From Mycoplasmatota bacterium (GTDB lineage Bacteria; Bacillota_I; Bacilli_A; RF39; UBA660), in NCBI GenBank assembly GCA_012727915.1, contig JAAYGD010000001.1:1-34762 (forward strand): DNA of 34,762 bases. The letters run 5' to 3'. Position 1 is the first letter of the stretch. Each line of letters starts with the position of its first letter. A program made the position numbers. Below, one piece after another: positions 26,401-34,762 of the stretch.

Positions 26401-29400
26401 AATCTGGAGATATTAATTTATTATATAAATATGCTTCAAAACTAATTAATGATAATCCAATATTGATTAATAATGAATCATATCCATCAAATATTTTAAA
26501 ATCAATAAATATTGAAAAACCTAATGATATATTAGGTATAACCTATATTAAAGAAATAATAAGAAACAAATATAATATTAAAGCATATACTATAAAAAGA
26601 AATACTAATTATCATAGCAAAGACTTAAAAGAATGTAGCGCAACCAGTATAAGAGAAGCACTAAAAACAAATAAAAAAATAAATGAATATATACCATATA
26701 AATTTAAATATGAAAATTTAAAATTTATTGAAGATTATTATTCTCTATTGAAATATAAAATACTATGTACTGATGATTTATCAATTTATAATGGGGTTGA
26801 TGAAGGATTAGAAAACAGAATTAAAAAAGTAATAATTAAATCTAATTCATTAGATGAATTAATAAATAATATTAAAAGTAAGAGATACACATATAGTAGA
26901 ATAAAAAGAATGTTATTGCACATATTAATAAGTTTCACTAAAACAGATAATGAGAAGTATAAGAATATTAATTATATTAGAATATTAGGATACTCTAATA
27001 AAGGTATTAAATACTTAAATAAAATAAAAAGAGATTTAAATTTACCTTTAATTACTAATTTTAATAAATATAAAGATTTATTATATTTAGAATACAAAAC
27101 TTCTTCAATATATGATATTAATAATATTAATTTTGAATTTAATATGCCTATAAAAAAAGACTAAATAAAAGTCTTTTTATGATTTCGACCATATACATGT
27201 TTGACACGTTGAAGTATAATTTCCAGCTGCTCTTGAATAAGTTGTTACATAAGAATTATAAAAATTATTTGATATTGAAGTACTTGATACATCTACTAAA
27301 GAAGGCATATTAATATTAACAATTGAATTATTTACAAAAGCCTCTATTCCTATCGAATTAACAGTTGAAGGAATAGAAAGACTAGTTAATTGATTTCCAT
27401 AAAAAGCTCTTTCTTCAATAGACCCTACCCCATTTGAAATAGATAAATTAGTTAATTGATTATTTTCAAATGCTGAAACTCCAATTGTATTTACACTAGT
27501 AGGTATATTAATATTATTAATAATATTTCCACTAAAAGCATATGAAGATATAGTAGTAACACTATTTGGTAATATTATACTTTTTAGAAAATTATTTTGA
27601 AAAGAATTTGAACCAATAGTATTAACTGTATTTGGAATTATTACACTTGTTAGTCCAATATTATCAAATGCAGAAGAACCAATTATCGTTAATGTTTTCC
27701 CTCCTAAAGTACTTGGTATAATTACATTTTTAGAGCAACTTAAATCATATCCAATAACAGTTGCTTCAGTTACTGAACTAGAATAATCAAAACAACTTTC
27801 GTCTACACTTTCTGGAACATTTAAAATACAAATAGAATCTTTTGTAACAGATACCCTCTTTTCATTAAATTCTTTTTTTGCGCACAAAGTACCATTAAAT
27901 AACATAATCGCTACATATCCATTATAAGTAACATAAATAATGCCTTGATCAGGTAAAGTACCATTATAAGGTATTGAATCTCCTACAAATATACCACCTG
28001 AAATAGTATATTTTTTATCTACTGGTACATTAAAAGATAAATCTAATAATCTATCACTAGCAGCTTTAACTAAATTCTCAGCTCCTACTCTAATAGACTC
28101 AATTTGAGAATTTTCTATAACTTTTAAAATTCTCGGAATAGAAATAACTAAAATTATTGCTAACACAACTATAACTGCTAATAATTCAATTAAAGTAAAC
28201 GCTTTTCTATTCATTACTAACTCCTAATATAGTTCTTTTTTCTTTTTAGCAACTAACAAAATAATTCCAATAGTACCTAAAGTAATTATTGAAAACGATA
28301 TATAAATATAGTAATCCAAAAACCAATCTAATAATATATTAGATAATTTTTCTTCTTTAATTACAGTAGGTTCTTCTTCTATTTCTTTTTTATTATTTTT
28401 TTCTTCTATATAAGAATTAATTTTTTTTATAAATTCTTCTTCAGAAATTTTAGTATTTACATTTTCTTTACATAAAAAGTATTCTTCATTACCTATACAC
28501 AAATCATTATCCTTATATACATTATAATAAGGTATATTAATAACCTTAGAAGATATATTAAAACCATCACAAACACTATTTGGATTTGAATATATTTTAA
28601 AAGACATTACAGTTCCAGGTATAATACCCTCAATAATATTATTTTCTATAGTATATGTTTCATTATTATAATCAATTACAATATCTTCTATCATATTTAA
28701 AATAGTTACTTTATATAAAATTTCATCTTCATTTTTATACTTTTCTAGTACATAATTAAAATTTAAAGATGCATTTCTTAATTTAGATTTTTCACTTAAA
28801 GTACACATTGGATTTAATGTATCATTATAGCCTAAAACAATAATAGGAAAAATTAAAATTAATAAAAATAATATTTTTTTCATAATTCCCCTTATTTTAT
28901 ATATAAAATTATATCATAAATATATCGTTTTGTTAATAAAAGAGAAACTATTAATTAGTTTCTCTTTTTATAAACTCTTTTCCGCCCATATATGGTTGTA
29001 ATGCCTTAGGTATTCTAATACTACCATCTTCTAAATAATTGTTTTCTAAGAACGCTATTAAAGCCCTAGGAGTGGCTAATACAGTATTATTTAATGTAGA
29101 TACATATTCATTGTTTTCTTTTTTAACTCTTATTCCTAACCTTCTAGCTTGAGCATCACCAAGTCTTGAACAGCTTCCAACTTCAAAGTATTCTTTTTGT
29201 CTTGGACTCCAAGCTTCAATATCACAAGATTTAACCTTTAAATTTGCTAAATCACCACTACAACACTCCAAAGTTCTAACAGGTATCTCTAACGTTCTAA
29301 AAAAATCTACAGTATATTTCCACATTTTATCATACCAATCAGCTTCTTCACTTCTATCACATAAAACTACCATTTCTTGTTTTTCAAATTGATGTACTCT

Positions 29401-32400: not shown

Positions 32401-34762
32401 TGTTTTCTAGTTTTATTCATTTCATCATAGTAAGTAGCCATATCATCTAAAACTTCAGGAAGGTTTCCTGATAACTCGGATGATTTTATCATATTAACTA
32501 ATAATCTTGGAAAAGAATCTCCTTGTTTTTCAAGAGCGCTACTAAAATTTTCTCCCATTGTTAATTCATAATTTAATGATTTATATAAATTTTTATACTT
32601 TCTTTTATCAGTTTGTTTTTCTAATATTTTTATAGCTTCAAGTAAAGGTAATCCAGATTTTAAGAAAGTAGACAATTGTGTTAAGAAGAAAACCAAATCC
32701 GCTCTTTTAATTTTTCCTCTTACTAATTTAGTTAATACATCTTGACCATAATTTCTTTGAGGTGTAATTTCATATACCTCATAACCTTCCGCAAGTAAAT
32801 AAGAGTGAACTTCAAGTTTAGAAAATGCTGGAAAAACTCCTCTTTCAAGTTCCCCTGTTTCTAATTTTTTAGCAACATATGTAAAATATATTTTTTGTTC
32901 ACTACGAACAGCATCTTCTCCTTCAAAATCAATCAAAAGAACTTGTCTTTCCATTTCGGCTTTATTTTCTCTATACCTAACAAATGCAAGATTTTTATAC
33001 CATTTCTTAATCTTTTGTTTTAAAGGAATATTTTTTTCTTCTTTTTGCTTTTCTTTTTGTTCTAATTTTGCTTTTTTAATCTTTATCGCATTTTCTTTTC
33101 TTCTTTTAGATTCAGATTCTTTTGCAGCTTTAAGTTTGGATTCAGTTTCAATTTTTTCAATCAATTGTTTTTCTTTTAATTTCTTTTGTTCAGCTTTAGC
33201 AATAATTTTTTCTTCAGCTTTTTTTCTTTTTTCTTCCTTTTTTTGTAATTTTAATTCTAATTTCTTTTGTTTTTTTGGTTCTAATTCCTGTTTCTTTAAT
33301 TCTTTTAATCTTTTAGCTTCTTCAATTCTTTTAATTTTTTGTTCTTTTTTAAGAATCTTTTCTTGTTCTTTTCTTATTCTATTAACTTCTTTTAATGTTT
33401 CTTTATCAATGTTCTTATTAATAATTTCATTATTACTCTTTTGCTTGTTTCTTTTTTCTAGTTTTCTTTTTTCTCTTAACGCTATTTTATATTCTTTCTT
33501 TCTTTTCTTTTCTTCTATTCTTTGTAATCTTTCTTGTTCTTTTTTTGCTTTACTTGCGTTATTCAAAGCTTTTTTATCTATATCTTTTTTATTATCCGGT
33601 TTTTTTCTTCTTTCTAGTTTCTTTTTTTCTTTTAACGCTATTTTATATTCTTTCTTTCTTTTCTTTTCTTCTATTCTTTGTAATCTTTCTTGTTCTTTTT
33701 TTGCTTTATTTGTAATCTTCAATACTTTATTCTTTTTATTTTCATTTAATATTTTTTTATTTTTATCTTTTTTAAATGGTAATAATATTGTATTTTTTAA
33801 TATTAATTCTAAGCCATAATAAAAATATATAAATGATTTTACTGGGATCATTAATATTTGTCTTAATCCTTCTAAGAAAAAGACTATAATTTTTTTTATT
33901 AATTTAAAAGGAAAAAGAACACTCCTCTTTATAAAAGAAGTATTTTTTTTCAATGGAGACGATAACAAATTGTGTGTCTTTTTTTCCATTTAGTAACACA
34001 CCTCCATAGCCAACCCCTGTATCTTGATTTTATTATATCACAAAAAGAGATATTTTGAACATTTATTAATAATTTATAACATGAAAAAAGATAGAATAAT
34101 CTATCTTTTAATTATTAATTATATACTACTCTATTTTGACATTGTAATGTGCCTGATGCTGTACAAGCTGTTGTTGTCCAAGATCCAAAACTATTCCATG
34201 TTGCACAACTTCCTTGAGCATATGTTTCGCATCCACAAGTCGCTGCGCGACATGAGTTATATGTTTGACATCCACATCCACTTGTTCTACATGAATTGTA
34301 TCCACAGGCTGATGCATTTGCACATGAATTGTACGATGTACAACTTCCCGTATATGTTCTTTTTATGTATGTACTAATTCCAGTTTGTTTCCATGTAGGT
34401 GTTTGATCACACCCTTTAGCACCTGATTCGCTTCTACATTTTGTTTCACACCTATTTGAAGTTGTAGACCAAGATATGGAACTGGCTCCTTTTAAACAAC
34501 TACAAGTACAAGTATATGCGTTTACGTTACATGTGTTATAAACTTGATTTGGTCCTGCTGACCCTGATGCAGAGCAGCTACTTGGATATGTTTTGCTCTC
34601 AACATAATTTCCCCACCATGCACAACTACATGATGAGTTTGGACATGATGCTGCTCCACATGCTGAATTTGCACAAGATTTATAAGTGGCACACGTACAA
34701 GATGAATTTGGACAGCTCTTGTATTGAGTACATGCTCCATTGTTATATGTTGCACAAGATGC

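Follow-up and report, generated by a model that had tools for sequence, protein, structure and literature searches.

A library of modular type 4 prepilins in a small Mycoplasmatota genome, proposed to supply interchangeable tip adhesins to one minimal filament

We propose that the modular prepilins of a Mycoplasmatota bacterium (assembly G000: 872,930 b, 76 contigs, completeness 93.8%) provide a single, minimal type 4 filament with exchangeable tip adhesins, drawn from a library that is renewed by duplication and recombination; we hold this reading to be probable rather than secure. The window analysed here is contig C59 of that assembly over its full length of 34,762 nucleotides, and it was read together with the remainder of the genome and with the genomes of related bacteria.

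According to this proposal, a single filament would be built by PilB, PilC and PilD, with PilT absent and PilMNO not found. A short major pilin (C68:45-434) would form the filament body, priming would be performed by a conserved minor-pilin set encoded next to pilB, and PilD would cut every prepilin between G or A and F. The remaining prepilins would constitute a modular library, in which a head of ~125 aa is followed by an LRR, Ig, GLUG, Gly-rich-discoidin, lectin-like or Cys-rich module. Since only the tip would have room for bulky modules, a filament would carry one or a few modular pilins, resulting in many binding specificities per cell or population. Renewal of the library would proceed in two ways: genes would be duplicated into new intergenic sites, and homologous recombination would exchange the modules of different heads.

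Results and discussion

Prepilin census

An earlier note on this DNA had counted 17 prepilins with a class III leader, spread over 14 loci. Scanning the whole genome in six frames for the leader [GA][FY][TS][LM][IV]E followed by a hydrophobic run returned the same 17, with the same lengths and the same five genes truncated by contig ends. All 17 match Pfam N_methyl at E<1e-3 and 14 reach the family cut-off; with the 1234-aa protein, recognised through TIGR02532, these make up the 15 counted previously by N_methyl or NCBIfam. Canonical leaders occur far above chance, the motif being present within the first 45 aa of 18 of the 907 called proteins (one of them a non-pilin without a hydrophobic run), against a mean of 0.04 and a maximum of 1 in 200 shuffles.

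Pfam searches recovered Ig modules in five prepilins and LRR_5 in two, as previously described. The suggested division into one half of ordinary short pilins and seven modular proteins needs adjustment: six of the 17 are complete, short and non-modular, while nine, and probably 11, are modular, because the 198-aa (Ig domain), 765-aa (GLUG motifs) and 440-aa (DUF6273-like module) proteins carry modules and the 147-aa and 72-aa prepilins are truncated heads belonging to the modular class. The modules fused to pilin heads in this genome are LRR_5, Ig-like, GLUG, ALK/LTK Gly-rich, F5/8 type C and DUF6273-like.

The suspected 18th prepilin, g00938 (681 aa), is a true one, since 80 of 80 related loci have a divergent prepilin gene immediately upstream of pilB, a layout shared with the complete operons at five loci of sister Bacilli. 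The 514-aa neighbour of pilB, which lacks E5, is likely a 19th. Adding these two proteins flanking pilB brings the total to 18-19, and the 19 genes fill 2.4% of the genome despite five incomplete ones. The first ~600 nt of contig C37 are 100% identical to the sister species G001, and contig C21 of G000 shows the same site empty. C37 may be a mis-binned sister-species contig or a strain allele, and the count for one cell is therefore 16-17 strict prepilin genes.

Leaderless paralogues had also been placed in the prepilin cluster. By a head-profile test, what these share with the prepilins is modules and not heads, two of them resembling the heads weakly. As candidate uncleaved pilins, the 220-aa and 1464-aa proteins of C41 have no head-profile match and reach HHalign probabilities of 38% and 5%. 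The clear head-plus-module paralogue that is uncleavable, having no class III leader, is encoded at C42:7696-8772 and was absent from the earlier list.

Genes of the window

The window contains the following features:

2..2170, minus strand: modular prepilin g00682, at least 723 aa, 3' cut (N_methyl, Bact_surface_Ig-like)
27177..28214, minus strand: modular prepilin g00711, 345 aa (N_methyl, three LRR_5; leader MNRKA/FTLIE)
30900..31664, minus strand: prepilin peptidase PilD, g00715 (A24_N_bact, Peptidase_A24)
31677..33989, minus strand: platform protein PilC, g00716, 770 aa (two T2SSF)
34032..34059, minus strand: candidate extended -10 promoter upstream of pilC-pilD (TTCAAA-16-TG-TATAAT)
34115..34762, minus strand: 215-aa Cys-rich C terminus of a large protein, 5' cut, directly upstream of pilC (recognised by homologues)

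In g00711, a B-type pilin head (approximately aa 6-130) with a conserved Cys pair is followed by a BspA-type LRR module, and an orthologue occupies the same site in G001 (84.5%). The g00682 protein consists of a B-type head, an Ig-like module and repeated beta modules; at this mtaB site G000 has the Ig type, whereas G001 has an LRR pilin. Homologues of the Cys-rich end are long proteins, of which 6 of 17 carry N_methyl and four read as prepilins, and G005 has the same tail upstream of its pilC. The protein ending here is thus probably one more modular pilin. The density of promoter sites in the region is at chance (72 vs 67), which makes the candidate pilC-pilD promoter a weak one.

The pilus machine

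PilD is the single match in a search of the genome for A24 peptidases, and its gene is intact, with two CxxC motifs and Asp118/Asp183 standing in the expected contexts. PilC possesses an N-terminal extension of ~370 aa (56% Lys/Arg/Glu over aa 71-340) and scores nearer to GspF/PilC than to ComGB models, no model reaching its cut-off. The single machine described earlier holds as far as one A24 peptidase, one platform protein with two T2SSF domains and one PilB on contig C76 are concerned; there is, however, a second secretion ATPase, of the TadA/CpaF type, on contig C19. It is highly improbable that the prepilins are served by this Tad-like machine instead of PilB/PilC. A short and a long pilin do follow the Tad/T4SS cluster as a pair in six genomes (G000, G001, G002, G003, G005 and G006), yet genome G054 keeps a TadA-level match and VirB4 while having neither a prepilin nor a PilB-level match, and the prepilin leaders are T4a-like rather than Flp-like.

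The C76 ATPase scores higher on GspE/PilB than on ComGA models (268 bits on the latter against a cut-off of 300), yet stays under the cut-offs because the protein is shortened. In a quick tree it nests with full-length Bacilli PilB, outside the ComGA clade (SH-aLRT 98 for the PilB clade), and scores and tree together argue for derivation from PilB and not ComGA. Neither ComGA nor a comG operon was found in G000, where only PilB and the TadA-type ATPase pass PF00437.

Several parts of a complete machine were not recovered. No PilT exceeds the TIGR01420 cut-off in any of the 61 family genomes (5 of 14 controls pass), and no PilM exceeds that of TIGR01175 in the same 61; a PilM profile from four sisters returned nothing in G000 and weak matches in 5 of 61, in frames of 415-434 aa, the size of FtsA. 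PilN and PilO were not found in G000 with small profiles, nor was the MshEN domain, borne by sister Bacilli PilB, found in the PilB here. The undetected PilM and the missing MshEN count against filament assembly by this machine, which is therefore a proposal.

Distribution in the family

Prepilins occur in 59 of the 61 family genomes, with a median of 8 and a maximum of 55, and G000 ranks about 16th of 61. The two genomes without prepilins are the same two that are without a PilB-level match, one of them keeping a weaker TadA-level match. Among genomes at the level of other classes, 14 of 15 have 0-7 prepilin matches. The prepilin expansion thus characterises the family as a whole and does not set this genome apart.

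Fixed loci and the likely major pilin

Across five congeners, fixed and variable pilin loci can be told apart, and the sequences point to two tiers: pilins at fixed loci, and mobile modular pilins. The fixed loci comprise the pilin before comEA-comEC, the set beside pilB, and the short and long pairs. The short pilin at C68:45-434 belongs to an array of 1-3 copies that precedes ftsW-comEA-comEC in G000 and ftsW-comEA in G001, G002 and G006, and that differs in copy number and sequence among congeners. This protein is most likely the major pilin; no other pilin equals its codon score (95th percentile), which with 17 reference genes is weak evidence. The minor-pilin set beside pilB on C76 (681, 176 and 514 aa) has an I/J/K-like gene layout, and the I/J/K profiles of the sisters matched it no further than the leader.

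The proximity of the likely major pilin to ComEA and ComEC leads to the question as to whether the filament serves chiefly as a competence pilus in place of ComG, its modules helping to capture DNA or to cross the wall. ComK is also present, the genome has no ComGA, PurE is absent in 5 of 5 genomes, and PilT and PilM are lacking, as in Com pili. On the other hand, three genomes without a prepilin match retain ComEC, and a role in DNA uptake leaves 4-55 rapidly exchanged LRR/lectin modules unexplained. We therefore regard such a main role as quite unlikely, while the same filament may well take up DNA as a secondary role.

Pilin heads and exchange of modules

Fold prediction of the g00711 head, representing the B-type, gave a helix (H3-54) and six strands at pLDDT 83.7. 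The five best VIA matches of this model are all type 4 pilins (Z 5.1-7.1, all below 8), the top one at Z 7.1 with an rmsd of 3.6 over 113 aligned residues; Foldseek returned none at E<=0.001. A single-sequence fold of the whole of g00711 was set aside (mean pLDDT 50.9). The B-type prepilin head is hence predicted to fold as a type 4 pilin. In 37 of 37 aligned heads there is no variation at E5, at P22 or across the globular head as a whole, Cys pair included.

Many module types sit on related heads: eight heads from a single genome group in a clade (SH-aLRT 100) that carries at least four module types. C37 and G001 have an identical head and different LRR modules; C49 and C59 (g00682) have Ig-module starts that are 99% identical and heads at 49-70%; and identical LRR ends of 127 nt are present at two loci, along with a possible head-only allele. 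In contigs from four DNA runs compared with C48 to check this allele, the listed pieces leave it at position 184, where C48 and C64 diverge, in two of the runs; no piece among those listed spans the C48/C64 joint, 334 further pieces lying outside the list. These mosaics come from short-read MAGs with strain bubbles elsewhere, and C37 may be mis-binned. Taken together, the comparisons indicate that LRR, Ig, GLUG or lectin-like modules have been exchanged between pilin heads recently. A diversity-generating retroelement was considered as a source of variation and set aside (no RVT_1 match in the 93.8% complete G000), as were silent cassettes of the Neisseria pilS type, given that the pilin copies have leaders and ribosome-binding sites; several also have upstream TG-N-TATAAT-like sites, read by eye.

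The same LRR module is found on a plain membrane anchor at C64:15426, which, together with the leaderless head-plus-module protein at C42:7696, implies that module display without a pilus is also used. It is conceivable, then, that the large prepilins are cleaved and stay held in the membrane or cap short stubs, and that only the short pilins polymerise. There are more large pilins than one tip could hold, PilM was not found, PilB is shortened, and identical module types stand on non-pilin anchors (the C64 LRR protein, the C41 Ig proteins and the uncleavable C42 head). We nevertheless judge this unlikely, as a plain anchor would have no need of the invariant E5, P22 and globular head with its Cys pair, and prepilins disappear together with PilB. 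A very unlikely driver of the diversity is escape from phages or predators that bind the pilus, as opposed to variety of ligands: the variable major-pilin array and the recent module exchange would suit it, but swapping whole unrelated binding folds is a costly route, and different species can share an identical head, the part that phage would probably contact along the fibre.

Our preferred reading remains that of tip adhesins on a filament. The earlier note saw the pilin leader as a general mount for surface adhesins. The mount is borne out by head fold, module variety, exchange and joint loss with PilB; the design, however, is already published as modular pilins, and its expansion belongs to the family. 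The adhesin role of the modules is suggested by their domain families only, and membership of an Ig or LRR family is no proof of adhesion. A position at the tip and the binding of ligands are proposed by analogy with Streptococcus sanguinis.

Comparison with known systems

More than 1,200 modular pilins in 264 architectures have already been catalogued, and tip location and adhesion are reported as demonstrated for S. sanguinis PilB/PilC (10.1101/2021.01.27.428410; PMC9934059). As in the PilA-PilB-PilC system described there, binding modules, Ig and lectin among them, are joined to a class III leader and pilin head; ConA-type lectin modules are present in congener G005. S. sanguinis is described as having two modular pilins, one locus and a T4aP machine (same sources), whereas here 9-13 modular pilins per genome are scattered singly and exchanged between heads, with no PilT and PilM undetected. 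The T4aP operons of sister Bacilli (L216-L220) share the PilB clade, PilC, PilD and a divergent minor-pilin trio beside pilB; they combine a 550-570-aa MshEN-bearing PilB and PilM in one operon, whereas a split operon is seen here, and neither MshEN nor PilM was found.

The Com pilus (T4dP), in the account of PMC10191384, resembles this system in its minimum of ATPase, platform and peptidase, its lack of PilT and PilMNO and its comEA/comEC link. It differs in that the ATPase here is not ComGA by model score and tree, there is no comG operon, and modular pilins are many. Saccharibacteria T4P-2 and Patescibacteria likewise combine a reduced genome, a PilT-less pilus, ComEC and a chromosomal T4SS that is conserved and mostly lacks a relaxase, and a large tip pilin of T4P-2 is reported to be required for host binding; these bacteria belong to another phylum, T4P-2 retains PilMNO, and host dependence has been demonstrated there and only inferred here (PMC11623550, PMC6744442, PMC12102498). 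Finally, in cyanobacteria one machine is described as using alternative minor pilins to make filaments for DNA uptake or adhesion (PMC13759059), with a pair of minor-pilin sets, both conserved, in place of the open, shuffled library seen here. We found no published account of a family-wide shuffled pilin library combined with a reduced machine. The fusion of pilin and module is thus a known design, and scale and family-wide swapping would be the new part.

Lifestyle and significance

The scale and family-wide swapping of modules suggest a way to grip many partners. Occurrence records of the species (20 runs, 9 studies) point to digesters, landfill and wastewater and not to an animal host. Ketoacyl synthase and PurE both went undetected in 5 of 5 genomes, and no T4SS relaxase passed the cut-off in the same number (0/5; one family, PF03432). 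Attachment to other microbes is proposed because these fatty-acid and purine synthesis genes were not found and the T4SS is core. Tentatively, the family may live by contact on other microbes, convergent with Patescibacteria: the pilin library (up to 55) would recognise partner or prey, PilB/PilC would display it, and the relaxase-less T4SS/Tad and ComEC would draw lipids, nucleotides or DNA. From genomic content we consider this possible, though not likely.

For pilus biology, the family offers a natural test of whether PilB and PilC suffice without PilM, MshEN and PilT, and a case of one machine handling dozens of alternative tips. Guts and digesters harbour this uncultured lineage in abundance, and how it obtains lipids and nucleotides is the question at stake. 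Purified modules could be used as probes for partners, which makes the lifestyle question testable. If the contact lifestyle is true, host range would be determined by the pilin library, which would also offer a means of tracing hosts and bringing the group into culture.

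Prepilin Inventory and Fold

An earlier note credited this genome (872,930 bases in 76 contigs, 25% GC, completeness 93.8%, contamination 0.23%) with at least 17 class III prepilins at 14 loci. This inventory was borne out by our analysis: five of the genes are truncated by contig ends, and shuffled proteomes yielded an average of only 0.04 prepilin-type N-termini by chance. Of the 17 strict prepilins, nine are modular, two are truncated heads that belong to the modular class, and six are short and complete. The 681-aa product on contig C76 (g00938), previously regarded as a possible 18th member, is indeed an additional prepilin, as a 514-aa product lacking E5 probably is; these two genes flank that of a 176-aa pilin, and their modules are Ig and Gly-rich, with a discoidin-type domain accompanying the Gly-rich one. 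The relevant features of the window are as follows.

Features of the window
2-2170: Ig pilin, at least 723 aa
27177-28214: LRR pilin, 345 aa
28224-28883: 219-aa protein directly upstream of the LRR pilin, with a signal-like N-terminus and a C-terminal membrane helix, conserved in the sister species (G001)
31677-33989: pilC
Within the window: pilD
Right end: Cys-rich tail; longer proteins homologous to it are frequently prepilins (N_methyl in 6 of 17)

No Pfam family reached the cut-off in the 219-aa protein. The head of the window pilin, modelled with 37 aligned heads, comprises a 52-residue helix and a β-meander (pLDDT 83.7). Its five best structural matches were all type 4 pilins, with moderate Z values of 5.1-7.1, while Foldseek returned no significant match for this head.

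Elsewhere in the genome, a 358-aa protein (C42:7696-8772) joins an A-type pilin head to a module resembling that of the 440-aa pilin; it begins with a plain membrane helix without a class III leader. A 1464-aa membrane-anchored protein on contig C41 (L094:6470-10864) contains four Ig-like and three Big_2 domains, a Pro-Thr linker, and a Cys-rich tail of the same kind as that at the right end of the window. A second orphan Cys-rich tail, 82% like the window tail over 111 nt, lies at the start of contig C49 (C49:1-507). Codon CGG is nearly absent from the whole genome (5 occurrences versus 6,442 of AGA).

Distribution across the Family

The prepilin expansion is real and family-wide. The family is probably UBA660, within order RF39, to judge from class, genome size, and the breadth of the family. 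N_methyl matches number 11-17 in the congeners, and 23 of the 24 remaining family genomes have 6-33; outside the order but within the class, 14 of 15 genomes have 0-7. TIGR02532 detected prepilins in 59 of 61 evenly drawn family genomes (median 8, range 4-55). The count for the genome under study is 14 by this measure, which is exceeded by 15 of the 61, eight of them having at least 20. The two prepilin-less genomes are also the two without a PilB-level match, a joint loss representing at most two events among kin that are not independent; both retain ComEC and VirB4.

Genomes G082 and G072 (loci L196-L204) have 55 and 42 prepilin matches, respectively. The tandem 840-870-aa pilins of G082 contain no Pfam module whatever, and one G072 prepilin (L202:5038-6363) is a fusion with Flg_new and a self-cleaving Pretoxin HINT domain, after which just ~20 residues remain.

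Assembly Machinery

The genome encodes one A24 peptidase, one platform protein, and one PilB, in agreement with the earlier note; the only further secretion ATPase is TadA-type. In a quick tree of 71 rows, this PilB clusters with the full-length ATPases of PilB/GspE type from other Bacilli (SH-aLRT 98), apart from ComGA and PilT, and its closest relatives are from uncultured Bacilli/Tenericutes-type MAGs, which their depositors labelled inconsistently. In the sister Bacilli, pilB includes MshEN and lies in an operon with pilC, a pilin, pilD, and PilM (PilM_2 match in all three PilM tested), with a minor-pilin trio opposite. The family PilB begins directly at the ATPase core: in 77 of 80 loci its HFDP motif falls at residue 31-62. 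A divergent prepilin adjoins pilB in all 80. PilT was absent from searches of all 61 family genomes, and PilM was found in the family genomes with neither a generic nor a sister-built profile. Because of the sister grouping of PilB, its lack of MshEN, the failure to find PilT and PilM, and the prepilin retained beside pilB, the machine is read as a T4aP derivative reduced to a Com-like minimum.

A long, charged extension of ~370 aa with repeated Lys/Glu-rich segments has been added to the N-terminus of PilC; the length of this extension differs between relatives (PilC has 558 aa in total in G080). PilB (L012:2646-4019, on C76), which is without an MshEN domain, has a variable acidic C-terminal tail and spans 394-568 aa across 80 relatives. 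In G030, from another order of the class, there are 23 N_methyl matches and four tandem pilins adjoin PilB (L213), which is also without the N-terminal domain and sister to the family PilB.

Fixed and Mobile Pilin Loci

Pilin gene surroundings were compared with five congeners, G001 completely and the others in part. An array of one to three ~130-aa pilins, likely the major pilin, is fixed before ftsW-comEA; in G001 three such candidates stand in tandem, the middle copy being split into two frames (L097:4442-4920). Further fixed loci are the set beside pilB, a 111+440-aa pair after the T4SS cluster, and a 119-aa gene. The B-type modular pilins, with heads of ~125 aa, occupy intergenic sites that differ from species to species; the mtaB site holds an Ig pilin in the genome under study versus an LRR pilin in G001 (~88% nucleotide identity).

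DNA mosaics show exchange between pilin genes, with the caveat that the genomes compared are short-read MAGs whose strain bubbles extend to non-pilin genes. Pilins on C49 and C59 (the window) are 99% alike at their module starts and 49-70% alike in their heads. The promoter and head on C37 are 100% identical to G001, followed by an LRR module at 30-76%; C37 may derive from the sister species, but one head would then still be paired with two different modules in two strains of one species. In the scpB-linked pilin region, identity to G001 is 98-100%, against 83-94% in the adjoining DNA. At the pbp2b site, a head-only gene (C48) and an LRR module end (C64) join the same downstream DNA, and this 127-nt LRR end is also present on C60. 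A tree built from 33 of the 39 B-type heads groups eight heads of G072 into a single clade, whose modules are GLUG, HINT, Flg_new, and a putative C-type-lectin fold; this last designation is ours and draws on a C-terminal motif plus one weak match to DUF6273. Modules among 44 long pilins scanned include LRR, GLUG, Ig, ConA lectin, FGE-like, CE2_N, and BNR; 18 of the 44 had no Pfam module.

Proposed Mechanism and Biological Role

Gene content, fold, and mosaicism are the observed steps of the mechanism. Prepilins would be inserted by Sec and then cleaved by PilD, PilB/PilC would polymerise the major pilin with the help of a priming set, and each tip may bear one or a few modular pilins, as modelled in Streptococcus sanguinis, where bulky modules fit at the tip only (10.1101/2021.01.27.428410; PMC9934059). 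Any retraction would have to rely on this one ATPase, as is the case for Com pili. Less probably, the large prepilins are cleaved but kept in the membrane, the pilin helix serving only as an anchor; the failure to find alignment proteins and the presence of the same modules on plain anchors speak against the tip reading and for this rival. Competence, together with homologous recombination among the conserved heads and the repeat-rich modules, would be enough for module exchange. Neither a dedicated exchange enzyme nor a reverse transcriptase was found in this genome, and the pilin gene copies look expressible.

The modular design is already known, and the present system is a variant of it: the published survey describes modular pilins as widespread (>1,200 proteins, 264 architectures), and its supplementary list may hold family members (10.1101/2021.01.27.428410). 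A literature search on RF39 with pilins, type IV pili, T4SS, or expansion, with most subscription journals outside its reach, found no paper on the system. A term search in two RF39-centred papers gave no word beginning 'pil', PMC12306168 mentions RF39 merely as reduced, and PMC11680825 concerns another order.

A chromosomal Tad-like and T4SS cluster (L093, C19:9709-26419; RcpC, TadA, TrbL, TcpE, VirB4, M23, VirD4) is core, with VirB4 in 58 of 61 family genomes at 64-99% identity; no PF03432 relaxase exceeded the cut-off in five genomes, this one included. Ketoacyl synthase and PurE were found in none of five genomes versus all 14 controls. This kit has a parallel in Patescibacteria (PMC11623550, PMC6744442, PMC12102498).

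The window sequence is present in 20 runs from nine studies, all DNA (RNA 0/20) and only from digesters, bioreactors, landfill, and wastewater. Since these sampled habitats are without an animal host, the ligands are likely to be microbial cells, biofilm matrix, or particles; contact-feeding on bound cells is a rather doubtful lifestyle. By membership, the system is neither a T4aP nor a Com pilus; it probably works in the manner of a minimal type 4 filament whose tips are drawn from an exchangeable library.
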